The notes below the pieces were generated by a model, which did not search any database, was not told the DNA's origin, and saw nothing but the letters and a program-made list of their open reading frames with translations. From the NCBI GenBank assembly GCA_000004985.1, contig GG738901.1: a stretch of DNA of 64,000 nt; one strand, given 5' to 3'. How positions within the stretch are numbered: the first letter of the stretch is position 1; each line of letters opens with the position of its first letter. The DNA comes from Naegleria gruberi. Its lineage: Eukaryota. The position numbers and the translations under genes are program-made. This document shows, piece by piece, positions 20,201 through 60,084 of this stretch.

Positions 20201-21346
20201 TGGATGGCTATAAGCAGTGGATGATTCCAGTGAAAGATTTGGAGATTATTTCCAAGATTGGAGAAGGAGCTTACGGAACAGTTTACAAGGCAGTATGTTA
20301 TTTTTTATTCTTTCAATGATTATTTAATATTATTTATAATAGTTGTGGAAGACCAATGTAGAAGTGGCCATAAAATCCATCAAAGTTGATGAAGATTCAA
20401 TCTCTACTTTTGAACATGAAGCATCTTTATTGAGTAGTTGTAGACACTTGAATATTGTTACATTTTATGGATGTACAATAACTGGAGAAACTAATTATCT
20501 GGTTGAGGAATATATGAGTGGAGGTGGATTAGACAAGATGCTATATCGTGTTGGTAAAGGGCTAATTGCAATGAGTCTCAAACAAAAACTAAGAATTTTG
20601 ATTGATGTGTCTTGTGGAATGAGCTATCTCAATGAACTCAAACCTCCAATTATTCACAGGTACGTTCAACATTTCAATATTTTAATTTAACAAATTCTAA
20701 TCAGAGATTTGAAACCTGAGAATATCCTTCTTACAAGGGACATGGTAGCTAAGGTTTCTGATTTTGGCTTATCTACCATTTCAAATCCTCAGAGAACAAT
20801 GACATGCCAAATTGGCAGTTTATTCTATATGGCTCCAGGTAAGTTTATTCTTTGGATTATTCATCATTACTGAACTCAAAACCAGAACTTTTCAACAGCA
20901 ATTATTACAATGAGAAGTGTGATGTCTACTCCTTCTCAATTGTCATGTGGGAATTATTCTTTGGAACTCGTTATTCATCCTTTGGAGGTGATGCCAATGA
21001 TCGATTCAAATTTTTACTCACAAGAGAACAAATTTTGGAACTTTCCACACTCGCAACCAGTTCAATTGCCTTTGTGTTGAAGAAGGTTGCTGAGGGAACA
21101 AGACTTCCACTCCCAAACAGTACATCTAGTCACCTCAAATGGATTAGAGCTTTCATGCCTGAACATTCCAGTAATGATGAACATTGTAAAGTTATTGTAA
21201 AGGTGGTAGAGAAGTATTTTACTCTGATGGTAGAATGTTGGGATAACGATCACAGCAAGCGTCCTGGATTCAGAGATATTATGTATAGATTGAAGGAAAT
21301 GGTGGATTTGCTTTATTTTGATGAGTGTACAGTGAGAACTTTGTAA
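17291..21346 (+). CDS. Receptor-like TKL-type protein kinase with beta-helix-repeat ectodomain; 5 exons join(17291..18273,18336..20292,20343..20659,20705..20838,20886..21346)
   Basis: Signal peptide MNFHIVLLLLLVIINLMIFSSSALA. About 900-aa ectodomain with recurrent GG[AG][LI]/N-x-[FA]-x-N turns (GGALTIDRV, GGGALYVYKS, GLGGAIIVNTA, YGGAIAYTDY, SGGGIYYL). TM ITLSATIAGILLLFIGFLVGFFFL. Kinase motifs GEGAYGTVYKA, VAIK, HRDLKPENILL, DFGLS, MAPE, DVYSFSIVMWE. Introns are GTAAGT..TAG (62 nt), GTATGT..TAG (50), GTACGT..CAG (45), GTAAGT..CAG (47). All phases are consistent with the six-frame ORFs 17255..18277, 18295..20319, 20343..20690, 20852..21346. Confidence 0.8.
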
Positions 21347-38406: not shown

Positions 38407-39660
38407 ATGGTTCACGTGAACGATTTTTTACTAACAAACATCATCCCTTCAGCTCTAACAAACCTATTCGAAACTTCTTCTCTCACACCGAATGTAACTT
38501 TTATGCAAACTTGTGTGAGATTTGATCCAGCAGGTTTCGAATATGTTGGCTGGGTATGGGATATTTTCGGCGAATGTGTCCACGAACCAAGAGAAATAGC
38601 TTCCTTTGCAGTTGGCATGATTTCCATTGGATTTTGGATGTGTGCTCTCCTGCCACAAGTCATTGCGAATTTCAAAAATAGAGATGCCTCCTCCCTGTCA
38701 ACTGGCTACTTGATACAAATCACTTTGGGTGATGCCTGTTCCATGACAGCTGGTATCATGAGTGGTCAATTGATTACTCAAATTTTATTGAGTGCTTACT
38801 TTGTATTAATGGACGTTGTAATGATTGCTCAATATTTTTGTTTTGTGGTCATTCCAAAAATTTATAGAAAAGTCAAATCGAGGAAAATTCAACCTGAAAA
38901 AAATCAAGAAATTGCAAATTCTCAAAGTGAATTGGTGAATAAGGAGAAGGTTGAGGTAAAATGTGAGAATTCAAAGCAGCAGGAAACAATTTTGAAGAGT
39001 TCGATTTGGATTTCAATTTTGGCAATTTTAGTATTGATTACATTCTTTACAACTTCAACAATGCTTTCGAATAATGTTGAGAATGCACAGAAAATGAATC
39101 AAAAAACAATGAGAAAACTATTGCATGCCATTAATGAAGGACAAGAATACTCAACCACTCAACAAGATCACAACAGTTTCACCTTCCCTCCAAACACTCC
39201 AGTTTCCATTGTTGGTTTCTCATTGGGTTGTTTCTGTGCCATTCTCTACATGGGCAGTAGATTACCTCAAATCTTTTTGAATTTCAGAAGAAAAACATGT
39301 GATGGTCTCTCACCTATTTACTTTGGAATTGGTATTTTAGGAAATGTTTGTTATTGTGTTTCGATTTGGTTGTACTCTTCAGATTCGGCTTATTTAATGA
39401 CACGTATTCCTTGGTTAGTGGAATCGACTGTAAATATATTTTTGGATATTTTCATCATGTGGCAATTTGTGTATTACAATTACTTGTATAAGGGAAAGAA
39501 ACCAGAAAGTAAGGAAGTAAAGAATAAGAAAGTGGAAGAATTGAAAGTTGTTTCTGCCATGAGTACAGTTTCAGATACTTCTCCAAAGGTGAATGCTCCA
39601 ACAAATGATGATTGGTCATCGAGTTCAACTTCTGCGAGTCCAAAGGAACAAATTGTGTAA
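38407..39660 (+). CDS. PQ-loop repeat membrane transporter (PQLC2/Ypq-like lysosomal/vacuolar amino-acid transporter family)
   Basis: Two PQ-loop modules (FAVGMISIGFWMCALLPQVIANFKNRDASSLSTGYL and GFSLGCFCAILYMGSRLPQIFLNFRRKTCDGLSPIYF). Seven predicted TM helices. Hydrophilic K/E-rich central loop and S-rich tail. Confidence 0.85.
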   Translation: MVHVNDFLLTNIIPSALTNLFETSSLTPNVTFMQTCVRFDPAGFEYVGWVWDIFGECVHEPREIASFAVGMISIGFWMCALLPQVIANFKNRDASSLSTGYLIQITLGDACSMTAGIMSGQLITQILLSAYFVLMDVVMIAQYFCFVVIPKIYRKVKSRKIQPEKNQEIANSQSELVNKEKVEVKCENSKQQETILKSSIWISILAILVLITFFTTSTMLSNNVENAQKMNQKTMRKLLHAINEGQEYSTTQQDHNSFTFPPNTPVSIVGFSLGCFCAILYMGSRLPQIFLNFRRKTCDGLSPIYFGIGILGNVCYCVSIWLYSSDSAYLMTRIPWLVESTVNIFLDIFIMWQFVYYNYLYKGKKPESKEVKNKKVEELKVVSAMSTVSDTSPKVNAPTNDDWSSSSTSASPKEQIV

Positions 39661-41382: not shown

Positions 41383-44037
41383 ATGTTAGGTTATACTCCT
41401 CAGTATTTAGCTCCTTCCACTTATGATGGAGGTAATAGTAGTAAAAAACGTAAATATCCCGACAAGCCATGGCATCACAAATTGAAGCCAAATACAAGAG
41501 TTGAATTGGTAAATTATATTGTAGAAGTTACACAGGGAAATGCCCAAGTGATTCGGAAGAAGATTTTCGATTTGATCATTCAATCACAAGCTGTTGATGA
41601 TTTTGCTAGAGATTTGGCTGAATATGCATGCAGTAGCAAAAGTAACCTTTCTATGGATACGATTAGAGACAGAGTGGAGGTCATGTTGGAACGTGATGTT
41701 AATGCACTACCAACTCCAAATCTAGCACACCGCTTGAATCAAACTGTTAGGCCTTTATTCAATGATAGTAATGATATTGGGATGAGTGTGAGAGCTAACC
41801 AATTCAATAATGAATTGTTTGAAAAGTTGGTGGAAAGGAATAAGTTGTTCACTCATTCTTCTGTCAATAATACTGATGTAGATATTCCAGAATTAATGGA
41901 ACAATACAAGTATTGTAACAAGCTGGCCAAGTTGTGGATCATGCAAGATTTGACTCGAAGGAGAGAGGAACTCTCAAAATCTAAACTGAATGCAATGCCT
42001 AATGAACTGCATGATGATCAACTATTGCACAATTTACCATTTGATTTGATGTTTGAAATTGTTTCATACATTCCAGTAGACAACAAGTCAATTTGGTGGG
42101 CTCAATTTCTCAAGTATAGAATTATTTCTAATTCCTTCAAGTTAAGATTGGAACAAGAAATTTTCACAAAATTTAGTAAGGAAGGCATTGACATTTCTCA
42201 CTTTGATGATAGCTTGTTAACATTGGAAGGTCTGACCTGTTTATTAGCAAGCCATTCTCAATATGAAAAACAAGGAAAACAGTTTAATGGTGACTTTATT
42301 CGATTACATATTACTGAAAAACAAACAGAATTACAAAAATTAACTGCCCCAAAATTCAATGGAAACATTATTCCTCCAAATGAAGAAAGTAATTCAAATA
42401 TTGTTGAGACTCAGATATTTGACGAAGAATACGTTGCTGAGGTATATTCTCAATCTGCTAACCAAGAAATTACTCCTCAAAGTCCTTTCCAGAGAAATTT
42501 TATCGCCAACAAAGAATCATTTGACAATACACCATTACCATTTATCAATGAACAATTTAATTCCTTTGAGTGTGAAGAATTTGAAAATCCTTACATTAAG
42601 TCCATCACCATTTCCAGTTCAAGAGATTTTCACTTCATTATTCCTGGACTGGTCAATCTGGAAGAGCTGACCTTAATCGTTTCGACAGAGGATTTTATGT
42701 ATTTGTTCTCCAAGATGTTTCAAACCATTTCACATCTCAAGCTAAAGAAGATTGTACTAGTTTATTATGGAGTTGTTCCAGCATCATTTACAAGACTTAT
42801 TCTGGATAAAGTTGAAATGCTTGATTATGGAGGAAGTTTCTATGTTTATTCAGCCATGGATACAACATTTATTAGCAATTTACGCATATCTTTGCCAAAT
42901 GTAAATATAATTTGTGAAGGTAGAGTGTTAAATAGAAGTAATGATTTTAGAGACTTGAAGGTTATACCTTGTAGAATTCAAAACTTTACTAACACCAAAT
43001 TTATATTGGATAATGGATGGTATAGACCTGTAGTACAACGAACCCGGTCATACGCACAAGGAGATGAAAAGTTTGCAACTATTTTTAATAATGATTGGTT
43101 TACAGTTAAGGAAAAGAAGGAGTTATTGAACTATTTTGTTGATAGATATTCCTTTAACTGGAAAGAAGAGCTCAAAACCAGCATCCATCAATCTCTCTTC
43201 CAATACTATATTTACTTGTTAAATATTAATCAGAAACAATTTGAATACAATTCACCCACAAAATATGTAAATGAACCAAAGAACAAACCAAACCTTTTGG
43301 ATTGTATTGTGTGGGGTCTTGATGTTTCAAATTGCCCAGAACAAATCCTTAGATTATGTACTAACTTTGGTAAAATTGGCTTGAAATTAGTTATTGACAA
43401 GTTAGAAAAAGACCCTGATTATCTCACAATTGAACATATGCGAATTTTTTTTAAACAAGCTGCCCATAACAGTGATTATTTGCACTTGTTAGTTCAACTA
43501 ATTCCCCACATTAACAATAGTGAGCATTTATTTGATGTTTATCAAAAGAATGGAGATAAGGTTAATATTCTGTTATCTGTCATTCCTAACAATCCCATTC
43601 TAGTTGAGCATATTATAGATAATTTTGTTACTAGTGCAAATCTTCAGAGTGAATTGCAACATGAGAAATCTCCCAAATCCCTTCTTCAAACTACAATTCA
43701 ATCTCAACTCCCCAACTCTACAATTCTTAAAATTGCCCAGAAAAACCCTAAATTGCTCTATCAAAAATCAAAAAATGGTCGCATTCCACTCCACTATTGC
43801 TTTACTCCTCACAGATATCAATTAATTAAGCCATTCCTTGAAATGGCTCCTGAAACATTTGAATATGAAGACGAAAATGGTTTCAAACCTTATCATTTCG
43901 TTCAAGAACATGAATTATCCGGTTATGGACGTATTTACGGTACGCCTGGTTTCAACTTTGAAGCATTTATTGATTTAGTCCTCCCAGATTTTGCCAAAGA
44001 GAGATTGAGAGAGTATTTAGCTAATAATCAAGATTAA
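41383..44037 (+). CDS. Hypothetical 884-aa protein with internal F-box-like motif
   Basis: ATG at 41383. Intron-free ORF. HNLPFDLMFEIVSYIPVDNKSIWWAQFLKYRI resembles an F-box. Otherwise unrecognised. Confidence 0.55.
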   Translation: MLGYTPQYLAPSTYDGGNSSKKRKYPDKPWHHKLKPNTRVELVNYIVEVTQGNAQVIRKKIFDLIIQSQAVDDFARDLAEYACSSKSNLSMDTIRDRVEVMLERDVNALPTPNLAHRLNQTVRPLFNDSNDIGMSVRANQFNNELFEKLVERNKLFTHSSVNNTDVDIPELMEQYKYCNKLAKLWIMQDLTRRREELSKSKLNAMPNELHDDQLLHNLPFDLMFEIVSYIPVDNKSIWWAQFLKYRIISNSFKLRLEQEIFTKFSKEGIDISHFDDSLLTLEGLTCLLASHSQYEKQGKQFNGDFIRLHITEKQTELQKLTAPKFNGNIIPPNEESNSNIVETQIFDEEYVAEVYSQSANQEITPQSPFQRNFIANKESFDNTPLPFINEQFNSFECEEFENPYIKSITISSSRDFHFIIPGLVNLEELTLIVSTEDFMYLFSKMFQTISHLKLKKIVLVYYGVVPASFTRLILDKVEMLDYGGSFYVYSAMDTTFISNLRISLPNVNIICEGRVLNRSNDFRDLKVIPCRIQNFTNTKFILDNGWYRPVVQRTRSYAQGDEKFATIFNNDWFTVKEKKELLNYFVDRYSFNWKEELKTSIHQSLFQYYIYLLNINQKQFEYNSPTKYVNEPKNKPNLLDCIVWGLDVSNCPEQILRLCTNFGKIGLKLVIDKLEKDPDYLTIEHMRIFFKQAAHNSDYLHLLVQLIPHINNSEHLFDVYQKNGDKVNILLSVIPNNPILVEHIIDNFVTSANLQSELQHEKSPKSLLQTTIQSQLPNSTILKIAQKNPKLLYQKSKNGRIPLHYCFTPHRYQLIKPFLEMAPETFEYEDENGFKPYHFVQEHELSGYGRIYGTPGFNFEAFIDLVLPDFAKERLREYLANNQD

Positions 44038-44047
44038 TTAATGAATT

Positions 44048-44180
44048 TTTCCAAGATATTAAGGCTTTCGTCACGCTTATTGTGCGCCTTCCTAGCTCAG
44101 TTGGCAGTAGCGCTGTCCTAGTAAGACAGAGGTCTTGGGTTCGATTCCCAAGGGAGGCATTTTGCCTTAATTCTAACACA
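44048..44180 (+). repeat. About 130-bp duplicated segment (copy 1) comprising tRNA-Thr plus about 38 bp 5' flank and about 20 bp 3' flank
   Basis: tttccaagatattaaggctttcGTCACgcttattgtgcgcc[tRNA]ttttgccttaatt recurs at 49775..49905 with only 3 substitutions in the 5' flank. Confidence 0.85.
44086..44159 (+). tRNA. tRNA-Thr (anticodon AGU), copy 1
   Basis: GCCTTCC acceptor pairing with GGGAGGC (one G-U). Anticodon stem CTGTC/GACAG with loop CTAGTAA. T arm TTGGG-TTCGATT-CCCAA. Discriminator A. TTTT downstream. Confidence 0.9.
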
Positions 44181-44444
44181 TTTGCTTTGGATAGATAAGC
44201 ACAATTTTGCAAATACAACAGTGCCTGGTAGAACCAATTTGAGTGGATGTAATTAGCAGGAAGATAGGTAAAATCAAAAAAGTAATGCTTTCCTCAGTAA
44301 TTTCATTTTTTTGCCAAATCTGATTTGGCGAATTGAAATGGACTAAAATCTTGTTGTAACAGTAAACCATGTAGGAAAGCATTGCTTTATTAGATTTTAT
44401 TTATCTTTTTAGAAAATTAAGTGACACTCCAACCAAACAAAAAA

Positions 44445-47400
44445 ATGAGTGCAAACAACACCTCTTATCAAGATTTTAATAATTACATCAAGAGATCGTT
44501 TGACGAACAAGGCAATTTAACAATCTCAAACAAAACTGGTGAATCCAAGTTCAACAAATGGCGATTAGAGACTAAACACATGTCTGTTGAAACACCTGGC
44601 TTTCACTTCTCAGACATTCTTTGGATGGCTTTTAAACCAAGAACAAAGGATAATTGTCCTGTTGAACATTCTTTGGATGTGTTGCATGTTAAACAAGAAG
44701 GTTCCTTGTTAATGGTTTCATACTTTTCTGAAGCCAAACCTCTTGCTGCCGCTATTCTTACCTCTACTTCTTTTGAATCTTATTCTGACCGACATGAATT
44801 CAAATTCAAAGCTGAAGACTGCTGTAATGACCAGATTGGTGGGATGTCCAATCTTCTCGTTCAATTCTGTAAAGAATATCTTCGTAGTTCTTATCAAACA
44901 AACCTAACATTTCAAGAACTGTGCAGAAAATATGTTCATAAAAGGGATGCATTTGGTTTTTCTCTGTTGCACCACTTTATCTTTAATGGATTTACTGCAG
45001 AGATTATCTATTTAGAAAGTATCATGGGATCATCTATTTTTCCGATGTTTTTGGAAATCGAACAAAAGAAACTGGTAAATAGCTCGAAAGAAGTTCTCTA
45101 TTCAACAAGCAAGAACTACTTTTTGAAGGAAAAGTGCAGAGAAATGCTAACAGAGTACTGCCAAGTTTTGAAAGGTAAGGCAGGTTTTGAAGATTTTGTT
45201 GCTCTTGAATTGGAAAGATTATCTGAAATCAGACTGTTGGGGGTTGCTACCGGAAACACAGAGTTCAAAACCAGGTTGTTGTATCTTTATAACTTTTTAA
45301 CCATTTCAGGAAAGCTCATTTCTACAAAGAATCCAACCCTTGGCTTGGCCAGTAATCAAAAGATTAGGGAAAGAATATTCAATGTTGACCAAAACAAGTA
45401 TATTGGAACCAAAAATGTTGAAGAGATCACCAGGTTCGAGATTATCATTGGATGTTTCTTATTATTCAATTATGGTCACTTGGGAGATGAGAGAGTTGTA
45501 GAAAGAAATATTCTTTACAACTTATGGAGGTCTTGCATTGAATTAGATGCAAAAAGAACTCCAAGGGAAGAAATCAAAACCTCAAAAGATGCCACATGTA
45601 ATCCCACGGAAGAACCAAGAACATCAAAACATTCAAAACAACCCTCAGATCAAATGGAATTTAGCCATAGCAAACCACTTGTTGAAACTCCAAAAAAAAA
45701 GCAAAAGAAAACCTCAGAGTCACCCAACACAACCCCAAAACTCACACCTCCTCCCTTGTTAATATCTACTCCAAACATTTCTTCTGTATCAACCAATATA
45801 TTGGAGCCAACAACTCCTACCTTAAAAGACTACATACACTTGAAACAGCAAATGAATCTTTCAGACAAGTGCATTACGTTTTTAAAGCATTTCCCTGAAA
45901 AGTGCAGAGAGAGAGCAGAAGATTACATACGAAGCTCTGATTGGAATCATTTTCACAGAGCTTTAGCAATTTGGAGGCTAGTTAATAAGATGACTGGTGC
46001 ACTTAAATTTGAGTTTGATTTCAAGACAATAGAAGGCACTCTACTTTTTATTGGGGAATATTTCTTTGAGTGTCTTTCAAAATCTACCAATTCATTACTT
46101 AAATCATTTTTCATTGTGAGACAGCTAGCTTATTTACTAAGTGATAATCCAGAAAATAGTTTATTTATTTTGAATGCAGAAAAATTATCAGACATTTTCA
46201 AAGATGAAAATATAATATCAAAACTTTATACAAGATCAGACCTTAGAGGAAGAACTTTACAGTTTGAAAATGAGTATTATCTCAACACTTCCTTAATGAA
46301 CGAAAAATATGCATCCAAAATGCTTTTCCATTTGAAATCTAACAAGAAAGTATGTGAATTGAGTGAAGAATTGTTTAACAAAAAGACATCAGAAACACAT
46401 GAAACTAAAGAGAAGTATTTTGCCACTGTTGTCTATCCTGTGATCAATGGAGGAGATTTTGCTTTATATAGACAATTAAACTATCAATTTAGAGAGGAGT
46501 ATGAATTCTTAGTTCAGAAATGGGTTGGCGGACAATACCCAGATTTTTCATTGGTCTTCTTTTTCTTGAAGAAAAGTTTCTCGTTGCAACACTTGTTCAA
46601 AATTTTAGGGAACTCTTGTGCAATGTGGAAAAACAATCATAGCTCTTGTTTTTCTAAAATTTTAGAGTTGAGTCGTTCTTATAATATTATAACCAATAAT
46701 TTGAAAAACATTGGAAATTTAATTTTGAAGGAATTTTTCGGTGGATCATATGTATTTGAAATAGATTGCAGCAATAACTTGGAAATAATGTGGACCCTTG
46801 CTTATGGTAATGCAGAGTCAGTGGAAAATTTGACTCAATATTCTCAATTGTTTGGACAAAAAGATGAAATATTTGAATCTTTATCTTTGTGTCAGTCATA
46901 TTTCTATGATGTTGTTTCAACAGGTTACTCACCTGAAAATGATGAATCTGTTTTCATGTTTCTGTGGGGGAATTTGCTTGTCAAACAAAAGAAAAGTCAT
47001 GAAGTGCAACAGTTCGATGTTTGCTGGGTGAAAATGGATAAACTGAAAGTCTCTTTGTATTTAGGTGAGGCAAAGAACAATACATCAGAGAATGCTCAAA
47101 ACGTTTTTGATGGGAAGGTGGACGAATTGAGATTGCCATGTCCTAGATATCAAATGCAGGAGAAAAATTTAACAGTAGGTGTATGGGAGAAATCTTACAG
47201 GGACTTGAAAATTTACAAAATCACCAATTTTACGGTGGAAAAAGAAACAGGAGAATCGGTTAACACTCTTTCTGTATTCTTTGTATCTGACAGCAAAAAG
47301 GATACATTAGATTTTGTAACAAACACTTTCAAATTAACATTGGAAGAAAAAGAATTGGATGTCGATTCACCAATTCTTGAAAAGAAAGATCTCTCTTTGT

Positions 47401-47585
47401 GTGACATAAGTACTGTCAACTCTGTCAGATTTAAGAATGGGAATGGAAAGTTTATAATTGCTAGCTCTCTTTTAAAATCACCAAGGACCACCAAAGAAGA
47501 TGGTATTCCAGATAGAGTTGTTGTAAAAGAAGATGGTCGGTTGTTGTTTGTTATGGACCTTAACTACCAAAAAGAAAAAAAATAA
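44445..47585 (+). CDS. Hypothetical large protein (about 1,046 aa), no recognisable domain
   Basis: ORF 44421.. starts at GTG; ATG at 44445 (MSANNTSYQDF). Single long ORF. Central Lys/Pro/Thr-rich linker (KHSKQPSDQ..KKKQKKTSESPNTTPKLTPPPLL). Confidence 0.55.
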   Translation: MSANNTSYQDFNNYIKRSFDEQGNLTISNKTGESKFNKWRLETKHMSVETPGFHFSDILWMAFKPRTKDNCPVEHSLDVLHVKQEGSLLMVSYFSEAKPLAAAILTSTSFESYSDRHEFKFKAEDCCNDQIGGMSNLLVQFCKEYLRSSYQTNLTFQELCRKYVHKRDAFGFSLLHHFIFNGFTAEIIYLESIMGSSIFPMFLEIEQKKLVNSSKEVLYSTSKNYFLKEKCREMLTEYCQVLKGKAGFEDFVALELERLSEIRLLGVATGNTEFKTRLLYLYNFLTISGKLISTKNPTLGLASNQKIRERIFNVDQNKYIGTKNVEEITRFEIIIGCFLLFNYGHLGDERVVERNILYNLWRSCIELDAKRTPREEIKTSKDATCNPTEEPRTSKHSKQPSDQMEFSHSKPLVETPKKKQKKTSESPNTTPKLTPPPLLISTPNISSVSTNILEPTTPTLKDYIHLKQQMNLSDKCITFLKHFPEKCRERAEDYIRSSDWNHFHRALAIWRLVNKMTGALKFEFDFKTIEGTLLFIGEYFFECLSKSTNSLLKSFFIVRQLAYLLSDNPENSLFILNAEKLSDIFKDENIISKLYTRSDLRGRTLQFENEYYLNTSLMNEKYASKMLFHLKSNKKVCELSEELFNKKTSETHETKEKYFATVVYPVINGGDFALYRQLNYQFREEYEFLVQKWVGGQYPDFSLVFFFLKKSFSLQHLFKILGNSCAMWKNNHSSCFSKILELSRSYNIITNNLKNIGNLILKEFFGGSYVFEIDCSNNLEIMWTLAYGNAESVENLTQYSQLFGQKDEIFESLSLCQSYFYDVVSTGYSPENDESVFMFLWGNLLVKQKKSHEVQQFDVCWVKMDKLKVSLYLGEAKNNTSENAQNVFDGKVDELRLPCPRYQMQEKNLTVGVWEKSYRDLKIYKITNFTVEKETGESVNTLSVFFVSDSKKDTLDFVTNTFKLTLEEKELDVDSPILEKKDLSLCDISTVNSVRFKNGNGKFIIASSLLKSPRTTKEDGIPDRVVVKEDGRLLFVMDLNYQKEKK

Positions 47586-48676: not shown

Positions 48677-49681
48677 ATGTGCCAAGAGATCTTGGCATTT
48701 GTTGATGATTGGAAATTTATACTGACAAGTTGTTGTCTAGTTTCTAAACAATGGCTCGAAATTGTAAAAAAATATTCTAATCTACGGATTAGTATTAGAA
48801 AATTGGATGATGAAAGAATTCACACAATGACCAAAAGCTCTTTCATCAAATTATTTCGGGAATTGGAGTTATTTGAAGGAATTGATAATGAAATATCAAG
48901 TGATTTTTTAAAAGAATTCAAGTATTTGCGTGAGCTCACAATTATTCGAAACATGGCAAAGCATGAATCTATTCTTGATGGTGTGGGAAGAGCTAAATCA
49001 ATCAGTGACTTAAAAAACCTGACTACTCTTGATATTGGATATAGTAGAATTGGTAATGAAGGTTTAGAGTCAATTGGTCAACTGGAAAATTTAACACGTC
49101 TTAACATTCGCTCTAATAATATAGGATTAGTCGAGCCAATAATTAATTTGAAAACATTAACAGCCCTCGATATTGGTGAAAATAGTATTGGAAACGAGGG
49201 AGTCAAATCAATAAGCAAATTGACTGAATTGACCAGTCTTTTTATTGATTACGATGATATAAATGAAGAGGGAGCGAAATATCTTTGTGAATTACCAAAT
49301 TTAACTATTTTAGATTTGACAGGAAGTAATATTGGCGATGAAGGTGCCAAGTTTATTGGTCAATCTACAAAATTGAAACATCTCTTCCTATCATTAGCAG
49401 ATATTTCTAATGTAGGAGTAAATTATTTGAGTTCCTTGAATGAATTGGTTGATCTTATTCTTTCCCTTAATGATATTGGTGATGAGGGATTAAAGCACCT
49501 TAGTTCATTGAAGATGCTTAATTATCTCAATGTTTCAGGAAATCAAATCACTGATGAAGGAGTTGTATTTATAAGAGAGATGGAAAATTTGAAAAGAATT
49601 TCAATAACGAATAATTTGTTGACAGCTGTAGGAGAAAATTTAATTCAAGAAATGTCAATTACTACTGATTTAGACTTATGA
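48677..49681 (+). CDS. F-box / RNI-type leucine-rich-repeat protein (334 aa)
   Basis: N-terminal F-box (CQEILAFVDDWKFILTSCCLVSKQWLEIV). Then about 9 LRRs of 24-28 aa (LTTLDIGYSRIGNEGLESIGQLENLTRLNIRSNNIG...; LTILDLTGSNIGDEGAKFIG..). Confidence 0.75.
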   Translation: MCQEILAFVDDWKFILTSCCLVSKQWLEIVKKYSNLRISIRKLDDERIHTMTKSSFIKLFRELELFEGIDNEISSDFLKEFKYLRELTIIRNMAKHESILDGVGRAKSISDLKNLTTLDIGYSRIGNEGLESIGQLENLTRLNIRSNNIGLVEPIINLKTLTALDIGENSIGNEGVKSISKLTELTSLFIDYDDINEEGAKYLCELPNLTILDLTGSNIGDEGAKFIGQSTKLKHLFLSLADISNVGVNYLSSLNELVDLILSLNDIGDEGLKHLSSLKMLNYLNVSGNQITDEGVVFIREMENLKRISITNNLLTAVGENLIQEMSITTDLDL

Positions 49682-49905: not shown

Positions 49906-50051
49906 AATTCCTTAAAAGACATGTAAATGTTGAAGGCTTTTAATGCTCTTTAAAATTGAAAGCCTTGAAGGAAATATTTGAGAGGAACTCCATAAATGGA
50001 AGATCGATTATTTTCGTAATTTTGCAAAAATGGAAATACTTTAAAAATTTA

Positions 50052-51716
50052 ATGTCTAAAAAAATGAAATTATTCAACATCTTTCTAATTATCTGTATCG
50101 CCTGCTATCTGTTCTTACCAGTATTCTGTCTATCCACACAAGTTACTTCCAATGGCGTTACATATTTAGGATTTCAAAATGGAAACGTTTCTTCCTTTAT
50201 TGGAATTCGTTATGGACAAGAAACCTCTGGCAATAATAGATTCAAGATTACTGTACCCTTCCTCTATGATCAATCCTCTGTGGTCAATGCAACTTCATTT
50301 GGCCACGTTTGTCCACAACCAACCACTGCCACAACTTTACTTTCGGCCATGAGTGAAGATTGTCTTAATCTGAATATTTGGACACCAATGTTGAATGAAA
50401 GTGTGCAAGTTATGGTTTGGATTCATGGTGGTTCATTCACAAGTGGTTCAGGTTCTATCTATGATGGTTCGTATTGGTGTTCGAAAGCAGCCGAAATGGG
50501 AATTCCAGTAGTTCTTGTAACTATTAATTATAGATTGGGATCTTTGGGTTTCTTATCTGATAAGACAAGTGGTGTGAATGGAAACTTTGGTTTATACGAT
50601 CAATTAGAAGCTATCAGATGGGTCAAAGTAAATATTCGAAACTTTGGTGGAAACCCTGACAAGATTACCGTAGCAGGAGAATCAGCAGGTGGCATGTCCA
50701 TAGCATGTCTACTCTCCACCTCCATTTTCTCTTCAGAAAACCTCTTCCAACAATCAATCATTCAAAGTGGAATTCTTCCAAGCTCAGTTTTACAAAATAC
50801 TTTGGACGGAGCTCAAGCATTTACAAATATTTTGAAATCAAGAGTTTCCTGTTTCACACTAGCTTGTTTGAGACAATTACCATTTGCAGATTTCATTACA
50901 GCTCAGAGAAATATGACCTTTGTTCCAGTAGTTGATGGTCAACTTTTATCCGAAACTATTTATCAAAATTTAGACAAGGTCAATAATCCAATCTCCAATA
51001 TTTCCATGATGGTTGGAACGACCAGGAATGAAACCACTGCATTCACCTGTGATAGAGGATCTAATCTCAATATCTATCAATTATATGTCCTCTTCAGAAC
51101 TCTCTTCAATATGGAACCTCTCTCATCAATTTTCGAGTTGTTGGCACAAGTGTCCATTCTCTATGGTGGACAGGGGACTTATTCGAGTATTTTGCAATTC
51201 TTTAATGTGTTTATGACGGATGCATTGTTTTATTGTCCAGCTCGATATTATTCATCGGTGGTTTCAGAGATGCAGAAGAATGTTTCGTCTAAAAGTAGAG
51301 TGGAAAGGAATGTTTATCAGTATGTATTTTCGTATGTCCAACCGAAATTGGGTCCTTGTTATGGAGCTCCACATGCTTCTGAATTGCCTTATTTGTTTCC
51401 ATCAATTTTGGACGAAATTAAGAATAATCCAGATTTGAGTGGAATGTTTTCTGATTCTCAAAATTTAGAATTTTCAGATAAGGATCGAAAAATATCTGAT
51501 TCAATGATTTATTATTGGACTAATTTTATCAAATATGGAAAACCAGATGGAGAAAATCCAAAAGAAGAATTCCCAAATTGGATTTCGTTTAATAGATGTG
51601 AAGAGAAGTTATTGTATATTGACATCCCTCTCAAGATGGAACAAGCAATGAAAGAAACAATTTGTAACTTTTGGGACGATCAATTTGGAAGAAAGAAAAT
51701 TGAGAAACATTGTTGA
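50052..51716 (+). CDS. Carboxylesterase type B (cholinesterase-like alpha/beta hydrolase), secreted
   Basis: ORF 49956.. begins at TTG; in-frame ATGs are at 50052 and 50064 before the signal peptide MKLFNIFLIICIACYLFLPVFC. COesterase motifs EDCLNLNIWTP, VWIHGGSF, nucleophile elbow GESAGG, FGGNPDKITVAGESAGGMS. Intron-free. Confidence 0.85.
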   Translation: MSKKMKLFNIFLIICIACYLFLPVFCLSTQVTSNGVTYLGFQNGNVSSFIGIRYGQETSGNNRFKITVPFLYDQSSVVNATSFGHVCPQPTTATTLLSAMSEDCLNLNIWTPMLNESVQVMVWIHGGSFTSGSGSIYDGSYWCSKAAEMGIPVVLVTINYRLGSLGFLSDKTSGVNGNFGLYDQLEAIRWVKVNIRNFGGNPDKITVAGESAGGMSIACLLSTSIFSSENLFQQSIIQSGILPSSVLQNTLDGAQAFTNILKSRVSCFTLACLRQLPFADFITAQRNMTFVPVVDGQLLSETIYQNLDKVNNPISNISMMVGTTRNETTAFTCDRGSNLNIYQLYVLFRTLFNMEPLSSIFELLAQVSILYGGQGTYSSILQFFNVFMTDALFYCPARYYSSVVSEMQKNVSSKSRVERNVYQYVFSYVQPKLGPCYGAPHASELPYLFPSILDEIKNNPDLSGMFSDSQNLEFSDKDRKISDSMIYYWTNFIKYGKPDGENPKEEFPNWISFNRCEEKLLYIDIPLKMEQAMKETICNFWDDQFGRKKIEKHC

Positions 51717-51825: not shown

Positions 51826-54800
51826 TTAAGCATCCACAACGGTTGAAACTTGGTTACAAGATTGATCGACAATTTCATTCATGGTTGATGATAAATCAGT
51901 CCAGGAAACTGTCATGGCTCTCGCTGGATCATAATTCATTCCTCTAATTTGTCTAGCACCCCAAGTGTTGGACATGGCAGAACCAACGGCCATAGCCACA
52001 ATTTTCTATAAAAGGAAAATTAAAAATTTATCAAAATAGGAAATATTCAAAAATTAATGAAAATAAAAAATAAAAACATACCCATTGGACCTTATTATTT
52101 CCATTGTAAGGATTATCCAAATCATATGGAACAACTCCACTAGCATTACGTTTCCAACTATTAATCTTTTGAGCTGCAGGAAGAGCATCAGCACATGGCA
52201 AACAATAAGCAGATTTGGAAGTACTACAATAATCACATTGAGTTCCATTGAGAACTGATGTATCATTATACTTGTAGGCACAAATATCATTCAATTGAGT
52301 GTTCAAAGCAGAACCAGTGTACTTGTTCAAGATATTGGTTTGGATAGAGTTGGAGAAGAGACTTGGTCTTGCTTGGTATTCATTTCTACAATCACCACAT
52401 GAACATGGAACGTTGGCAACACCATCAGTCAAAACTATTGTAAAATAAATTGAAAAATTATTTGTAAGAAATTGTAAGGGTGAAAAAAAACTTACTGAAA
52501 ATAACCTTATCAGCATCATCTCTACCTCCATTGGCAGGTCTCAAAGCATCTACAGCAACTCTCAATCCAGGAATAGTTCCAGTTGAAGAGGCTTCATAAG
52601 CCATATTAGTTAAGGTATTATTAATTGTTGTTCCGTCATTCGAAAGTTTCAAAGCAAGTGTTGCATTCGAGTGGAATCTTACAATGGAAACCAATATGGA
52701 ATCTGATGAGATGGACATTCTTCCTGTAATTTGTTTACACAAAGTTCTCATTGAATTATAATTGGTTGTACCAATTGACCCAGAAGCATCAAGTAAAAAG
52801 ACAAAGTCAATCTTGGCAGTGCAGTAACAATTCTTGAATTCAATGTAGACAGTTGCGTTTCTAGAGACGTTGAATGAAGTGATCATTGTGTATTGGAATT
52901 TATCTGCTTGACAGGTTGTGGTGTCAGAATCAACTTCGATAGCAGCAACTCCATTAACTGTCACTAATCTTGGAGTCTTGTGACAGTAATTGGAATTTGG
53001 ACAAGAAATTGAGGTTAATTTCAAGGTAGTATTTGAACCAAATTCATCAATATCATTTTGGAGAATTTGCCAGACGTAGATTCTAATAGTTTGTCCTTGA
53101 TTAATTTCAAATCTGTCATCATTGGCAGTTGGTGTTGATGGTGACAAGACAAATGTAATGACAGCAGTATCAACTCCATTAGTTGGTAAATTGTTATCCG
53201 AAACCTTAACATTCATTGTACAAGTTCCAGTAATGACAGTTGGCAATCTTGTAAAAGTGACAACTCCAGAAGTAGAAATAGTCAAACTTGACACAATTGA
53301 GCCACAACTATGACCAGTTTGACTGAAAGTCAACACATCAGAACCATCAGCATCTGTGGCCGTATAACCAAAAGTATGGACATTGCTCGTAGCAAGTGGA
53401 ACCACCGTAAAAGTCACATCATTTGCAACCGGAATTTGATTATAAATATTAACAGTCACTGAACAGGCACTGCTACTCGTAGCTTGAGAATCGGTGCTAG
53501 TGTAAGTGACTTGGAAAGTTCCACTGTTAGTGGATGAAGCTTTGAAAACAGTTCCTGTCAAGGTGCCAAATGTTGAAGAGATGGAATTGGTAATGGTGTT
53601 GGTGATTGGATCATTGTTGGAATCGGTGGCGCTGAATAAGGTGGCCAAGTCAATTGAACCTTTCTTTAACAAGTCAATTGAGCTTGAAGAACAGATTGGA
53701 GCAGAATTGAGGAAAGTGACACTGAATGTGAGATTTGATGTACTGTAATGAAGACCATCGAATAATCTGAATTGAATTGTCTTGAGACCAAGGATGAGTT
53801 TGTTACTGGTGGTCAATCTGATACCAGTTCCAATATTAGAAACTGTAATACTTGAATCAGAAGAAACGAAATTGGTATAAGAAATGGAATCTCCATCAGC
53901 ATCTGAAACTGTGGCAATTTGAGCCCAAGTGAAATCATAAGTAGAGGTTGTGTAATCTCTGTCAATTGATGTGGATTTTCCAGTACCTGTTGGAGCATTG
54001 TTAGTGACAGTTACAGTGACAGTTCCTGGATTATTGGCAGTTAACATACCATCAGTACATTGGAATTTGAAAGAACCTGTAGCAGAGTAAGCACCATTAG
54101 AACCAGTAAAGGTTAAAGAAGTTGCAGAAGGAGTATAACTAACAATCTTATTCGAAACTGAAACACTTCCACCAACAACACTTGAAGTAGCTCCATTGAA
54201 GTAGGCAGTATCCAATGAATCAGAATCAGTACAAGCACCTGATGATAAATCCACAGAAACAGATGATTTCCATTTGGTAGTTGCTGTCTTGTCAACACAT
54301 TGTGGAGCATTGTCATAAACATTGACATTTACAACAGTGTTGCTATTTTCAAGGGATTGAGCACCATCTGTGAATTTATAGGTGACAACATCAGTTCCAA
54401 TGTAGGTTCCCGGAGCATTGTAAGTAATGGTTGAAGTTCCAACTGAAACTGAACCCTTTTGAGCTGATGCACTAACAAGTGACAAGTTGTCATTATCTGG
54501 ATCTTTCAAAGAAGGTGCAAATGTTGCGAATGGACTCAAGGTAACACCAGTTTCCTTCCAGTGAACATTCTTTGAGCTTGCAACTGGAACTGACATGTTA
54601 TTATAAACAGTGACATAAACTGTACCTGGAGTTGACACAATTGAATCACTAGCTCCATAAGTGAATGAGAAAGTTCCCAAATAAACAGATGAACCAGCAG
54701 TAGCAACAGCATTTGGTGAAGTTGGCATAGCAATAGATCCAGCCCCGGATGGAGAAACACTAGATACTTGAACTGAATAAGTTAATGCATTTCCTTCAAC

Positions 54801-57800
54801 ATCTGTTACTCCAGTACTCATGTCCATTTGATAACCCGTCTTGTGAGTAGCCCAGTGGACATTGAAATATTTGGTGTTGGTTACTGGAGCAGTATTAGTC
54901 ATGGTGAATGTGACTGAGAAAGTAACTGTGGCCAAACCATCAGTTGCAGTTACCTTAAAAGAGTCTGGACCGACATATTTGGTAGGAGCAGTGTAAGTGA
55001 TTGAACTGCCAGTTACTGCAGAGACAGACCCCAAAGTTGATGAGCTATCAACGCTCTTGACTGTTCCCTTTGTTTCTCTACCAGCAGAATAATCATCATC
55101 AACATAATTAGTTAACAAGTCAACTGTCTTTGAGCCTCCCCAATTAATAAATTGAGTAGCAAGACTGGCAGTTGGCACATTATTGTAAGTAGTAATAGTA
55201 ACAGAAACAGTACTATCAAGACCAGTATCAGTAACAGTTACAGTGAACGTATCAATGTACAATTTTCTCAAAGGAGTAAAGTAAATCTTTCCACCTGACA
55301 AGGTGACAGTTGGATTAGAAGTGGAACCAATTGCCTTAATAGTTGAAGTTGGCAAGTTAGTCAAGATTGGAACTTCATAATTGTTGGCATTCCAGTGGAC
55401 ATCATAACTTTGATCATAATTTGAAGAGCTCAATGAACTGACAACAATGTTAATGTAACAAATTGATGAAGCTGTCAAACCATCAGTGACTGTGTAAGCA
55501 TAGGTACGAGCACCAATGTTTGCGTTTGGTTTAAAGTTCAAATATGCACCAACTACAGTGAAAGAATCACCAGGATAGGAATTTCCAATAATTTGAGCAG
55601 TTCCAGGAACTAAATATGGAATATCATTGGAATCTGGATCAGTAACTGATGATGAAATTGAATAGTTTTGACCACTTGTAACATAGATTGGTTTGAATGA
55701 AACGGTCATGTTTGAACATGTTGGTGCACTGTTTGTAATGGTCAATTGAGCAGTTTTACTTCCAGATGAAGCCAAACCATCAGAAACTGAGAATGAGCAT
55801 GAGGCTGTACCAAGAGTATTAGGTGGAGCTGTAACTCTAACCTTTGGAACAGTGTCACTAGTCTTTGAACAAGAAGCTCCAGATAATCCTGAAGCAGTTG
55901 GATTGACAGTCAAAGTAAGAGAATCACCATCATTGTCAGTTGTCTTTGCCATGACAGTGAAATCTTGATTAAGAGATTGAGACAACAAAGTTCTCCAATG
56001 AACAGAAGTAGCAACATTTGAAGCACTTGGTACATCATTATTAGTAAAACCAACGTTAACAGTAATTGTATCAGATTGTGAAACAGTGTCAGTAATAACA
56101 TATTGGAAAGTATCAGCCAATCCATTCTTCTTGGCAGTATATTTAACAGAAGATCCACTAACAGAAGCAGCAGTACTTCCACTAACAGAGTAGAGTGAGA
56201 TTGGATCTCCATTTGGATCCATGTCATTGTCCAAAACTGAGAACAAGGTTGCAGGAGCAGCCCAATGGAGAGTGTATGATTCACCTGTACCAACTGGTTT
56301 AGTATTGGTCACTTGAACGTTGACAGTTCCTTGAGTTTTCTTATTGTAATCATAAGCATAGTAAGTGAATGACTTTGAACCAACAGTGGCAGAGACAGTG
56401 TTTGGAATAAATTTGATAGTCTTGGAATCTGACAAGGTGACAGTTCCAACAGAGGAGTCAGCTGTAGTAGATTCTAAGACAAGAGCATCACCATCTGGAT
56501 CACTATCATTGGACAATGGATTAACCAAGACACCACTAGGATTTCTCCAGTGAGTTGTGATGGAATCATCAACAGTGACAGGAGCGTTATTGTTGACAGT
56601 AATAGTGACAGTAGCAGAGTTGGAATCAGCATTAGCAGAACTTCCATCATTTAACTTGTAAGTGAAAGAATCAGTTCCAACAAAACCATCAGTTGGTGTG
56701 TATCTGACAACACTTCCCAATACAACAACAGAACCATGAGTTGGATTTGTGGTAATGTGAACAGTGGATGTGGTCAAATCACCATTCTTATCAGAATCGT
56801 TATCCTTTACAGAGCAATCAACTGATCTATTCCACAATGTGGAGTAGGAATCATCAACAGCAACAGGAGCATCGTTAACAACTTGTAAAGTAACTGTAGC
56901 TCTATAAGTTGAAGTCAAACCATCTTGATGGGTGACATCATAGGTCAAATAATCAGTATATTCAGCATTAGAAGCAGCATATGACAAAGTATTCTTAGTG
57001 CCAGGTACAATAGTAGCTTGAATATTCTTAATTGTAGAAGCAGAAACAAAGTTTACAATAAATACTGAACCAAGACCATCGTTTGGATCAGAATCATTAT
57101 CCAAAACATTCAAAATGGAAGTAACACCCTTTGAAATCTCGAATGTATCATCGGCAGGAGTTGGTGGATTATTGATAACAGTAACAGTGAGCTTTCCCTT
57201 TGAGAAACTTGTTGGATCAGCATTACCATTAGCATCAAGACTTTGATCAGAAATTACATATTGAGCAACGTCAGTTCCCAAGAAACCATTTGGAGCTGAG
57301 TAGAGAGCATGTGTTTCATTGAAGAGGGTCAAACTTCCTCCATTCAATGTTGTGGAATTCCAACCAACACTTGACAAGACGATCTTTGCAGTGTCACCAC
57401 TGTTGATATCATAATCATTGGCAACGAGATTGACATAAACTTGAAGATTCTTATTACATTCGGCAAGGTCATCAACTGCAACAGGTGGAGTATTGACAAC
57501 GTTGATGGTGATTATACCACTTCCTGTACCTTCACCATCTGACATGACAACAGTGAAAGTTTGAGTGTAAACTTGATTGGAAACTGGTGTGAAAAGGATA
57601 GTGTAATTGTTTGTTTCAACACTAAGCCAATCACAACAATCAAAGAAAATATTGACATAATTAGTAGTCTTTTGTAAAGAAGAAGAAACAGATGCAAGAG
57701 AAGGAGTGATTGTACTTGGAACGATCAAATCCTTTCCATCTGCATCATAATAATCAATAGTAATTGAATTATTAGTGGATGACTTGGCAACAGTGACAGT

Positions 57801-58881
57801 TTTAGAATAGACAACTGGATTTTGATTGTAAACTGAGATTACAACAATACCAGATGAAGTAGCAACACCATCTGAAATGGTATATTCAAACGAATCAGAA
57901 TATTTGGTATTGACACTACCACTTGTAATGTAAGTAATCTTCTTTTCACCAACATTGATAGCACCATAACCAGTACCCAAAGCACTTGTAATATTGAAAT
58001 CATCACCATTGATATCATAGTCATTAGCCAAAACATCCAAAACCAATGAACGGAATTTAGGAATTCTGTAAGTATCATCAACAGCAATTGGAGGATCGTT
58101 GGAGACAGTGACAGTAATTATAGAGCTCGAAGTGTCATAGCCATCAGAAATGGAATAGGCAAATTGTTCAACACCATTGAAACCATATGCAGGAGTATAA
58201 TAGAAACCATTAGCTGGATCAACAGAAATTGAACCAGTTTCAGCACTATTTCCACTAACAATAGTTTGATTAGTGAAAGAAACTGCTTGAATTAAATCAC
58301 CATTATCTGGATCATTAATCTTCTCATCATTATCACCAACATAATCAAAAATGTTGATTACTGAATTCTTGGCATTCTTACTGACAGTTACACGAATAGG
58401 AACGGCTTCTGGTGGACGATTCAAAACTTGAATAGTAACAGATGCATTTGCTGTCTTGTAACCATTAGTAATTTGATAACTGAAAGTGTCATTTCCAGCA
58501 AAAGTACCATTTGACTTGTAGAGAACTTGACTATTGGACTGAATTGAGGCTGAACCATGATTTGGATAGACAACAAATTGAACCAATGAAATGTTTGCTC
58601 CTTTAGGATCATAATCATTGGAAAGAACATTGATGGTCAATGGAATATTCTTGTAGGTGGAAGCTAAATCATTGACAGCAACTGGTCTTTGATAGGAAAT
58701 CAAGGACACCATCAAGATGGTGGCTACTGTGGAAGCAATAACCAAACCAGAGATGATAGCACCAATCTATTTGGTTTTTTAGAATATGCGAAAGATTATT
58801 CGAAACTTACGATTGTTTGACTAATAGTACCTCCTTTCTATTAAATAGGTTAGAGCGCAAGTGGAGTTTGAAATATTTCAT
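51826..58881 (-). CDS. Giant secreted adhesin-like protein (about 2,284 aa): signal peptide, about 20 tandem cadherin-like/VCBS-type repeats, C-terminal VWA domain with Cys-rich insert; 4 exons join(58881..58831,58766..52496,52434..52082,52005..51826)
   Basis: Exon 1 MKYFKLHLRSNLFNRKE. GTACTA..AATAG intron (64 nt). Exon 2 opens with the hydrophobic IGAIISGLVIASTVATILMVSLISYQ, then about 95-100-aa repeats with recurring P[PV]xAVDD ... (V/L)xxNDxDx[ND]GD motifs, then VWA start DFVFLLDASGSIG ... RDDADKVIF. GTAAGT..AATAG intron (61 nt, phase 1, codon A|TT giving ..VIFILTDG). Exon 3 is the Cys-rich insert (CSCGDCRNEY..CDYCSTSKSAYCLPCADA..). GTATGT..TATAG intron (76 nt). Exon 4 is KIVAMAVGSAMSNTWGARQIRGMNYDPARA..stop. 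All phases are consistent with ORFs 52458..58745 and 52031..52531. Confidence 0.75.
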
Positions 58882-60084
58882 TGTTATTTTTCGACATTAT
58901 TCACATATTATCCACATGGATTGTCAACTGACACTTACTAATAACGAAACGTTGAAACCAAGAGATTGCTTGGACGCAGTTGAAGATCCAATAATTTCTG
59001 GCATGGCTAATTTTTTTAAAGATGTGTAACAAAGCTGTCAATGGTTTGTTGGTTTTTATAACTAACTCATTCCAAATAATTAATGATTTCTGACATACCC
59101 TTAGAAGTGACATGACATTTTGACCCTTAAACTGGAATTTTAGAACTGAAAAATTGAACTGAAAATAAGAAATTGAATTTTCATTTTCAGACAATTACTT
59201 GCCTTGGAATTTTTCTAGTTTAAATAGAGTGCAAACAGTTAATATTAGATGTTCATTTCCCAAAGTATCAACATTAAAAGTAACTTGTAAAGCACTCACT
59301 GTATCGATGTGTATACAATGAAAGTACGAAACAACAACAATTAAGAACAATTTCTTGCAAACTATTCTACATAGCAAATGGTGTTAACAAACCGCCAAAA
59401 ACCGTTTTGCTGTAAATTTCAAAAGAAAAAATGGCTTAAAAGCTTGTGCTGGAAAAATATTGTTTGCTTTGGAAAGAACCTTAGTAAATATTGCTTTGGC
59501 AGTAGTGCTCACCATTTGGAGAAAGAACCTTAGAAAAAATTGTTTAAAGGGTTGCGAGGATGGCTGCTTTTTGATTGAACCAACAATAAGGATGAACAGA
59601 AGAGAGTATCCGAGTAATTTCGTCATACAAGTTTTTCATCATCCAATCAACCTTTTATAACAAACGGATAACTTCAACATCTTCATCACTGAATTATCCA
59701 AATTATCTTACTTCTTCTTTTCTTCACAAGAAGGCAATCATCACGATATTTACACTTCACCAACAACAATAATATTTTAGAAATTTTGTTTACATGTTTC
59801 CTTTATTATGATGATAGCAATCAACATCTTATGAAGATTAAATTTGAGTATTGGAGAACTTTTTGATACAAAACTCGTCAAAGTGACATCAACTATCCAC
59901 TTTCCTGATGAACGTGCTTGTGTGATCTTTCCTTGTTGCGAGCATGATGATAGACGACTCTTCAGCATCTACACTTCACTGCTGTCATCAATATGATTGA
60001 CAGGCGATGTAAAATCATTTGAAGGATGATGGGTTAGATTGATAAATTTTCACACATTAAAAAAACAAATCAACAAAACCACTA

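Follow-up and report, generated by a model that had tools for sequence, protein, structure and literature searches.

The DNA analyzed here, referred to below as the window, is a stretch of 64,000 nucleotides from contig GG738901.1 of the Naegleria gruberi assembly GCA_000004985.1. Its minus strand carries a gene for a giant protein of 2,298 residues, encoded by five exons between positions 59004 and 51826. The protein is composed of a 30-residue N-terminal tail, a single hydrophobic segment, an array of cadherin-like repeats, and a C-terminal von Willebrand factor A (VWA) domain. A sequence-only reading of the interval 51826 to 58881 had proposed a secreted adhesion protein built from repeats of the bacterial-adhesin type; this observation is largely accurate, but the organism, the anchoring, the gene start, and the age of the repeats need correction. 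As described below, the protein is probably a variant of the giant repeat adhesins and belongs to an undescribed heterolobosean family; its closest relatives in N. fowleri, N. lovaniensis, and N. gruberi are all automatic predictions and uncharacterized.

The core of the gene is a minus-strand open reading frame (ORF) of 2,095 codons (52458..58745), the chance probability of which is about 1e-70 at the local base composition. The coding sequence of 6.9 kb has no interruption, so that the 2,298-codon frame is intact, and the four introns are all of the GT-AG type with lengths of 44 to 101 nt. The GC content of the gene is 37.7%, compared to 34.6% for the window. Exon 1 (58939..59004; MPEIIGSSTASKQSLGFNVSLL), identified in a six-frame reading and followed by a GTAAGT donor, encodes the start of the presumed cytosolic tail and matches the N-termini of the N. 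fowleri protein P0122, the N. lovaniensis protein P0002, and the N. gruberi paralog P0282. It is located 58 nt upstream of the interval of the sequence-only reading. Intron 1 (58838..58938; 101 nt, GTAAGT...AATAG) is followed by exon 2 (58811..58837), a microexon of 27 nt preceded by AATAG and followed by GTAAGT. It encodes KGGTISQTI, the part of the tail next to the membrane, and aligns with KGGTITQTI in N. fowleri and N. lovaniensis and with KGGTISQTV in P0282. Intron 2 (58767..58810; 44 nt, GTAAGT...AATAG) comes next, and an in-frame stop codon is found directly upstream of position 58766, where exon 3 begins. This exon (52496..58766; 6,271 nt) comprises the transmembrane (TM) helix, the complete repeat array, and the N-terminal half of the VWA domain.

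Intron 3 (52435..52495; 61 nt) interrupts the isoleucine codon of an ILTDG motif, which, as the sequence-only reading had inferred, is created by splicing. Exon 4 (52082..52434) contributes LTDG, including the Asp of the metal ion-dependent adhesion site (MIDAS), and a cysteine-rich insert with eight Cys residues (PCSCGDC ... CLPCAD ... INSWKRN), the pattern of which is kept in the family alignment. After intron 4 (52006..52081; 76 nt, GTATGT...TATAG), exon 5 (51826..52005) encodes the C-terminal strands and helices of the VWA domain (WKIVAMAVG ... MNYD ... IVDQSCN), likewise supported by the family alignment, and ends with the TAA stop codon at 51826-51828, the position given previously. The junctions KVIF/ILTDG and VQW/KIVAM are both spanned by the uninterrupted ORF of the N. 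lovaniensis ortholog, which confirms the splicing of both introns.

The gene start and the exon number differ from the earlier model, which had four exons and an ATG at 58881: this ATG lies inside intron 1, and the real start is at 59004. A start at 58881 (MKYFKLHLRSNLFNRKE... frame) was rejected because its reading frame does not continue across the strong GTAAGT donor at 58810, and joining it would require a weak GTACTA donor. A 1-nt frameshift in an A-run near 58835 was also considered and was dropped once the upstream exon 59004..58939 and the 27-nt microexon reproduced the N-terminus of four homologs, which start with MPE.I..GS.T......GFNLSLLKGGTITQTI. The model of the gene at 51826-59004 was not recovered from a collection of 5.8 billion proteins, nor was the exact product of 2,298 residues, in an indexed search that had one clear false negative (the C-terminal 390 residues, homologs of which are present). 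Tentatively, the gene may lack annotation or be modeled differently in the public N. gruberi set.

Some details of the intron pattern vary between species. The first N-terminal intron follows codon 22 in N. gruberi and codon 11 in N. lovaniensis, and the phase of the second differs by one base between the two. The introns of the VWA region (52006-52081 and 52435-52495) are absent from the N. lovaniensis ortholog (L002 13708-17403) and from the AT-rich homolog L003, implying that they were either gained in the gruberi lineage or lost elsewhere. The single DNA tandem repeat of the locus (52013-52072; 27-nt unit, 2.3 copies) is located inside intron 4.

Following the conserved tail of residues 1 to 30, a stretch of about 26 residues forms the sole hydrophobic segment of the protein (residues 31/32-56; 58692..58766, minus strand; IIGAIISGLVIASTVATILMVSLISY) and is predicted to be a signal-anchor TM helix. 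Its Kyte-Doolittle maximum is 2.35 at residue 31, whereas no further segment of the whole protein exceeds 1.6 on this scale. In particular, a C-terminal hydrophobic segment is absent, in agreement with the earlier statement that the protein has neither a C-terminal TM segment nor a glycosylphosphatidylinositol (GPI) signal. Paralogs and different genera alike retain the tail motif GF(N/T)xSL(L/I)KGGTI(S/T)QT and the helix VIASTVATI(L/I)(M/L)V. Motif and helix are almost invariant among paralogs that share just 32 to 35% overall identity, and both can still be recognized in a very distant homolog. Such a degree of conservation is not seen in ordinary signal peptides. Based on the conservation pattern, the length, and the position of the hydrophobic segment, we infer that the N-terminus is a type II signal anchor (N-in/C-out) rather than a cleaved signal peptide. 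The "eukaryotic signal peptide" and the free secretion suggested by the sequence-only reading fit poorly with a near-invariant helix of this length behind a conserved tail of 30 residues.

The hydrophobic segment is followed by tandem cadherin-like domains of the Big_9/tandem-95 type (residues 59-2012; 52824..58685, minus strand), which were delineated by self-profile tiling, an alignment and identity matrix, Pfam and NCBIfam scans, and a motif census. A profile trained on the protein itself divided this region into exactly 20 head-to-tail modules of 84 to 109 residues. Further matches of this profile inside the VWA domain were discarded as over-fitting. In Pfam, Big_9 (PF17963) matched in 15 stretches with an E value of 3.5e-122 and 400 bits (cut-off 23.6), and Cadherin_4 (PF17803; E 2e-87, 288 bits) and Cadherin_5 (PF17892; E 3.6e-41, 139 bits) were found as well. 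The NCBIfam model tand_rpt_95 (NF012211) matched 11 stretches with 266 bits, compared to a cut-off of 90. The earlier count of about 20 tandem cadherin-like modules of around 95 residues is thus confirmed by matches far beyond chance. As for the repeat family, the bacterial cadherin-like character stood, as the tandem-95/Big_9 type, but the VCBS assignment did not: TIGR01965 gave no match in the NCBIfam scan at E ≤ 0.01, which returned tand_rpt_95 alone. Neither the classical Cadherin family PF00028 (E ≤ 0.1) nor HemolysinCabind PF00353, which represents RTX repeats, was matched in Pfam.

The repeats are more divergent than had been supposed. The sequence-only reading attributed both a PxAxDD-type start and an NDxDx(N/D)GD calcium-binding-like loop to each of them, whereas the motif census found the start in 7 of 20 and the strict loop in 5 of 20 (R3, R5, and R7 to R9); a relaxed acidic loop is present in 8. 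R1 to R9 are mostly canonical, and R10 to R19 are degenerate. The identity between repeats is 22% on average and 36% at most, and no tandem repeat at the DNA level is present in the coding sequence, so that the architecture cannot be called homopolymeric. The most canonical pair, R7-R8 (56298..56867, minus strand; PVAVDD...NDSDKNGD and PVTVDD...NDSDPDGD), was modeled with AlphaFold2 as two all-β sandwiches with a predicted local distance difference test (pLDDT) value of 94.2. The closest solved structures identified by Foldseek were Ig-like modules of fucoidanase, cadherin and protocadherin ectodomains, and the cadherin-like modules of staphylococcal SraP; TM-scores were best for the SraP modules (0.54 to 0.60) and ranged from 0.3 to 0.4 for the cadherins and protocadherins.

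The C-terminal module (residues 2010-2298) matches the Pfam VWA family (PF00092) with an E value of 3.6e-12 and 47.3 bits, compared to a cut-off of 23.8. Its N-terminal half (52497..52832, minus strand), assigned by Pfam and the family alignment, includes NCYC, strand β1, DASGS (52776-52790; residues 2024 to 2028), and the MIDAS Thr in SSTGT (52575-52589), and extends to KVIF. Together with the Asp in ILTDG, these residues constitute a complete MIDAS, and the VWA domain with intact DASGS and ILTDG motifs recognized in the sequence-only reading is thereby borne out. An insert of about 115 residues with eight cysteines, for which no Pfam match was obtained, follows ILTDG, and the module ends with ...IVDQSCN. 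In an alignment of 12 rows, consisting of 10 family members and two fragments of the window's own protein, the MIDAS residues D15, S17, S19, and T84 (alignment numbering) are conserved in 90% or more of these rows. The cysteine pattern and the VWA signature are conserved in the 10 family members. For the VWA module, the N. fowleri ortholog was modeled with AlphaFold2, which gave a predicted TM-score (pTM) of 0.82. The fold matches of this model were ANTXR2, Toxoplasma MIC2, Plasmodium TRAP, mussel PTMP1, the A1 and A3 domains of von Willebrand factor (vWF), and the integrin α-I domain, with target-normalized TM-scores of up to 0.79. By sequence, the only relatives in the PDB were the VWA domains of collagen VI and vWF, and the head resembles eukaryotic matrix-type VWA domains.

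The members of the family were collected by an exhaustive profile search of the protein collection with the VWA module, full-length matches to which were confined to a small set. This set includes N. fowleri FDP41_006209 (XP_044559448.1, P0122), a protein of 2,312 residues annotated as "VWFA domain-containing protein"; the N. lovaniensis ortholog, in two halves (P0002 and P0123; C9374_005925 and the adjacent gene); N. lovaniensis paralogs of 1,174 and 3,429 residues; a cluster with N. gruberi NAEGRDRAFT_79080 (P0282, 2,704 residues), found via its 753-residue representative P0258; Acrasis kona AKO1_005751 and several metagenomic proteins; and a 2,336-residue protein from a very AT-rich source (Logan SRR28027657). 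The top scorers of the search were collagen-VI-like metazoan proteins. They match positions 1 to 125 only and owe their scores to many VWA copies, and they were therefore not regarded as relatives of the whole module. Three features define the family: the N-terminal tail MP...GF(N/T)xSL(L/I)KGGTIxQT with the TM helix VIASxVAT, the tandem-95 array, and a C-terminal VWA domain with xCxC before β1, TDGxxNxPCxC and the cysteine-rich insert, C(L/M)PC(A/S)D, and the end (I/V)DQxCN. All three are found in the window's protein, N. fowleri P0122, N. lovaniensis P0002 plus P0123, P0007, and P0245. The first is present in N. gruberi P0282, the second and third in its representative P0258, and the third in Acrasis kona P0254.

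The N. fowleri protein is colinear with the N. gruberi protein from end to end at 50.5% identity, with the same tail, TM helix, 20 repeats, and VWA domain with cysteine insert. Conservation is strongest in the anchor (67%), R7, R20, and the VWA domain (61 to 69%). Each repeat is 33 to 66% identical to its positional partner in N. fowleri, compared to 22% between the repeats of one protein; this repeat-by-repeat correspondence shows that the 20-unit array predates the split of the gruberi and fowleri lineages and that number and order were kept. The convergent expansion of the repeats that had been considered before, and likewise a recent one, is contradicted by an old array fixed at 20 units in the same order in N. 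fowleri, and convergence is excluded by the profile scores. The distant homolog of 2,336 residues shares the layout, and the occurrence of the same arrangement in orthologs and homologs argues that length and order are under constraint.

A second N. gruberi protein, NAEGRDRAFT_46423 (P0001), is encoded on a different scaffold and is an in-paralog with 75% identity. The possibility that P0001 is the ortholog and that the window derives from another Naegleria species was rejected, because a neighboring gene encodes a protein 100% identical to one of N. gruberi NEG-M. The public 1,343-residue model of NAEGRDRAFT_46423 skips most of the middle repeats and the start of the ILTDG/cysteine-insert region; it is almost certainly wrong, and the true protein probably also has about 2,300 residues. 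The N. lovaniensis ortholog (L002 10001-17403, PYSW02000025.1) is annotated as two adjacent genes of 1,070 and 1,184 residues and contains apparent frameshifts near 13,700 and 11,430-11,600, which could be assembly errors or real disruptions. No synteny with the N. lovaniensis locus was detected within about 10 kb. The distant homolog is encoded by an intronless gene on a Logan SRR28027657 contig of 7,359 nt (L003), which opens with Nextera adapter sequence; it is rich in N, I, and K and has the same tail, TM helix, about 20 repeats, and a VWA domain with the cysteine insert. In P0258, the VWA domain with its insert is followed by an additional C-terminal region, the end of which resembles a C-type lectin on visual inspection; the VWA domain is therefore not the last domain in every family member.

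Several further genes noted in the window lie on the plus strand. The convergent neighbor (49956-51716), whose stop codon is about 110 nt from that of the giant gene, encodes a protein of the carboxylesterase family (PF00135, E 1.5e-100), which judging from its hydrophobic N-terminus is probably secreted. A leucine-rich-repeat protein is encoded at 48677-49681 and a PQ-loop transporter at 38407-39660, the latter being 100% identical to XP_002671976.1 of N. gruberi NEG-M. Five long ORFs of 674 to 1,054 residues (41383-47585, 26536-28623, 18295-20319, and 9-2204) had no Pfam match at E ≤ 1e-5. The amoebozoan setting assumed in the sequence-only reading is not correct, since the DNA, as the identical transporter shows, is that of N. 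gruberi, a member of the Heterolobosea.

The repeat families are overwhelmingly bacterial, and 117 of 120 best database matches were prokaryotic or metagenomic; the best matches overall were Naegleria proteins. With a query of 839 residues, the best bacterial matches show about 30% identity and cover more than 90% of its length, and R7-R8 are 35 to 45% identical to bacterial two-repeat units, which is above their identity to sister repeats. A bacterial origin of the repeat type, as put forward in the sequence-only reading, is therefore plausible, but it would be ancient. A Vermamoeba genome paper reports that a tandem-95 homolog is expressed there and names it as a candidate for acquisition from bacteria. 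The same database matches might be taken to indicate that the gene is a bacterial contaminant, that it was inserted recently by horizontal transfer, or that it is a decaying relic without function. We regard this explanation as extremely improbable, as contamination, recent transfer, and pseudogene status are each refuted: the gene has four GT-AG introns and a GC content close to that of the window, it is flanked by eukaryotic genes, one of which encodes the protein identical to that of N. gruberi NEG-M, its frame is intact over 2,298 codons, and orthologs or paralogs exist in N. fowleri, N. lovaniensis, and Acrasis kona. A transfer that was recent or occurred en bloc is opposed by the spliceosomal introns, the host-like GC content, the distribution in Naegleria and Acrasis, the eukaryotic N-terminal anchor, the eukaryote-like VWA domain, and the finding that none of the listed bacterial matches pairs tandem-95-type repeats with a VWA domain. 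Most probably, the repeat module was acquired long ago and then underwent fusion and diversified within the Heterolobosea.

As to function, it is fairly probable that the protein is a single-pass, N-terminally anchored type II (N-in/C-out) cell surface adhesin of N. gruberi. Its extracellular character is indicated by 30 cysteines with a conserved pattern and 28 N-glycosylation sequons, and the adhesion role suggested previously seems the most reasonable reading of the domain matches, the folds, and the MIDAS conservation. In the adhesin that we envisage, the conserved cytosolic tail of 30 residues and the near-invariant TM helix would hold the protein in the plasma membrane. The twenty cadherin-like β-sandwich domains would form a stalk of approximately 80 to 90 nm when fully extended, assuming 4 to 4.5 nm per domain as in cadherin-like domains. 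The membrane-proximal repeats R1 to R9, which contain most of the acidic Ca2+-loop motifs, would probably be stiffened by calcium. The C-terminal VWA domain, located distal to the membrane, would bind an acidic group of a ligand via a divalent cation in the MIDAS; candidate ligands are the substrate, the surface of a prey cell, or another cell. The disulfide-rich insert of about 115 residues beside the MIDAS face probably shapes the specificity.

Several points weigh against this proposal. The topology is derived from sequence logic alone, and the charges flanking the helix are weak, with +1 on each side. Neither an NPxY motif nor another recognized cytoskeletal linker motif was found in the cytosolic tail, and NPxY occurs nowhere in the protein; a link to the cytoskeleton, if there is one, would thus need another partner. 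Much of the stalk may not bind calcium, as only 5 to 8 of 20 repeats have a recognizable Ca2+ loop. The VWA model represents the N. fowleri ortholog rather than the window's own sequence, and the cysteine-rich insert is modeled with low confidence.

A different assignment, along the lines of the sequence-only reading, takes the hydrophobic segment for a cleaved signal peptide and the protein for a secreted matrix, coat, or cyst-wall component. The lack of a C-terminal TM segment or GPI-like tail would be in accordance with this, and the closest VWA matches include VWA-rich matrix proteins such as collagen VI and mussel PTMP1. However, the hydrophobic stretch of about 26 residues begins only after residue 30, and the conservation of tail and helix across paralogs and genera is atypical of a cleaved signal peptide, which makes secretion an unlikely outcome. 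Binding might also be mediated mainly by the repeats, acting as Ca2+-dependent lectin modules that capture bacterial exopolysaccharides, so that the protein would serve as a prey-capture or phagocytic receptor. The model for this idea is RapA2 of Rhizobium, a cadherin-like lectin. Naegleria feeds on bacteria, the repeats match both Cadherin_4 and Cadherin_5, and the similarity of R7-R8 to bacterial two-repeat units points in the same direction, whereas the acidic loops are lost in most repeats, and conservation is highest in the anchor, R7, R20, and the VWA domain, with the nearly unchanged MIDAS pointing to the head as a functional site. On balance, a predominant lectin function of the stalk appears quite improbable; binding by lectin repeats and binding by the VWA head are, however, not mutually exclusive. 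The UniRef name of the N. lovaniensis homolog is "RapA2 cadherin-like domain-containing protein."

Among the closest parallels to the anchored adhesin, compared by published descriptions, are the Sib proteins (SibA to SibE) of Dictyostelium. These are demonstrated adhesion receptors (PMC9197732, PMC9453864). Like the Naegleria protein in its predicted topology, they cross the membrane once at the surface of an amoeboid protist and carry a membrane-distal VWA domain together with bacterial-type repeats. Their topology is of type I, with a signal peptide, an N-terminal VWA domain, four repeats, a Cys-rich region, a C-terminal glycine-rich TM segment, and a talin-binding NPxY tail (PMC9197732, PMC9453864). 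The Naegleria protein has the reverse polarity, with an N-terminal anchor, 20 repeats, a C-terminal VWA domain, and no NPxY. Sib proteins were not found outside Dictyostelia (bioRxiv 10.1101/2020.04.29.069435), and a review states that they are the sole eukaryotic proteins with that bacterial feature (PMC9453864). The suggestion that a VWA domain joined to bacterial-type repeats is unprecedented in an amoeboid protist does not hold, since Dictyostelium Sib proteins have been described in such terms (PMC9453864).

Bacterial tandem-95/Big_9 proteins and giant RTX-type adhesins share with the Naegleria protein the repeat family and, as proposed here, the N-to-C order of anchor, long extender that would bind Ca2+ at least in part, and ligand-binding head. 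Giant adhesins of this kind include LapA, MpIBP, and the SiiE class. In the Naegleria protein, RTX nonapeptide repeats and a type I secretion signal are missing (no PF00353 match), the C-terminus is a VWA domain, and the anchor is a eukaryotic tail with a TM helix. Apicomplexan TRAP and MIC2, which are among the best VWA fold matches, are likewise protist surface adhesins with a MIDAS-containing VWA domain on a stalk; they are much shorter type I proteins, their thrombospondin-repeat stalk is unrelated, and their C-terminal tail is coupled to the gliding motor. Metazoan cadherins also consist of tandem β-sandwich domains with acidic inter-domain loops, and their ectodomains are fold matches. 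With the PF00028 model unmatched, this similarity is at the fold level only; the TM-scores are modest, and topology and cytoplasmic partners are different.

No publication on this protein or on N. fowleri FDP41_006209 was found; the Naegleria pangenome paper only counts VWA genes (PMC9928731). The present analysis corrects the annotation of the family, adding a 27-nt microexon and identifying mis-modeled genes for an N. gruberi paralog and the N. lovaniensis ortholog. Little is understood of the molecules by which Naegleria attaches to surfaces and prey. In N. fowleri, attachment to host matrix is regarded as one component of pathogenesis (PMC9928731). The proteins described here offer a candidate receptor family that is conserved, multi-copy, and apparently surface-anchored, with a predicted metal-dependent head and a clear N. 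fowleri ortholog, FDP41_006209. They would provide a second example, from outside the Amoebozoa, of a eukaryotic surface protein in which a VWA domain is joined to adhesin repeats of the bacterial type. A more far-reaching interpretation, which we put forward only tentatively, is that the family is the heterolobosean counterpart of integrins and Sib proteins and serves as the principal adhesion receptor for substrate or prey in Naegleria, including pathogenic N. fowleri, having arisen by an independent fusion of anciently transferred bacterial repeats and a eukaryote-type VWA domain on a type II anchor. If true, the Sib design would have been invented twice, in two eukaryotic supergroups, and in the heterolobosean case with inverted topology.

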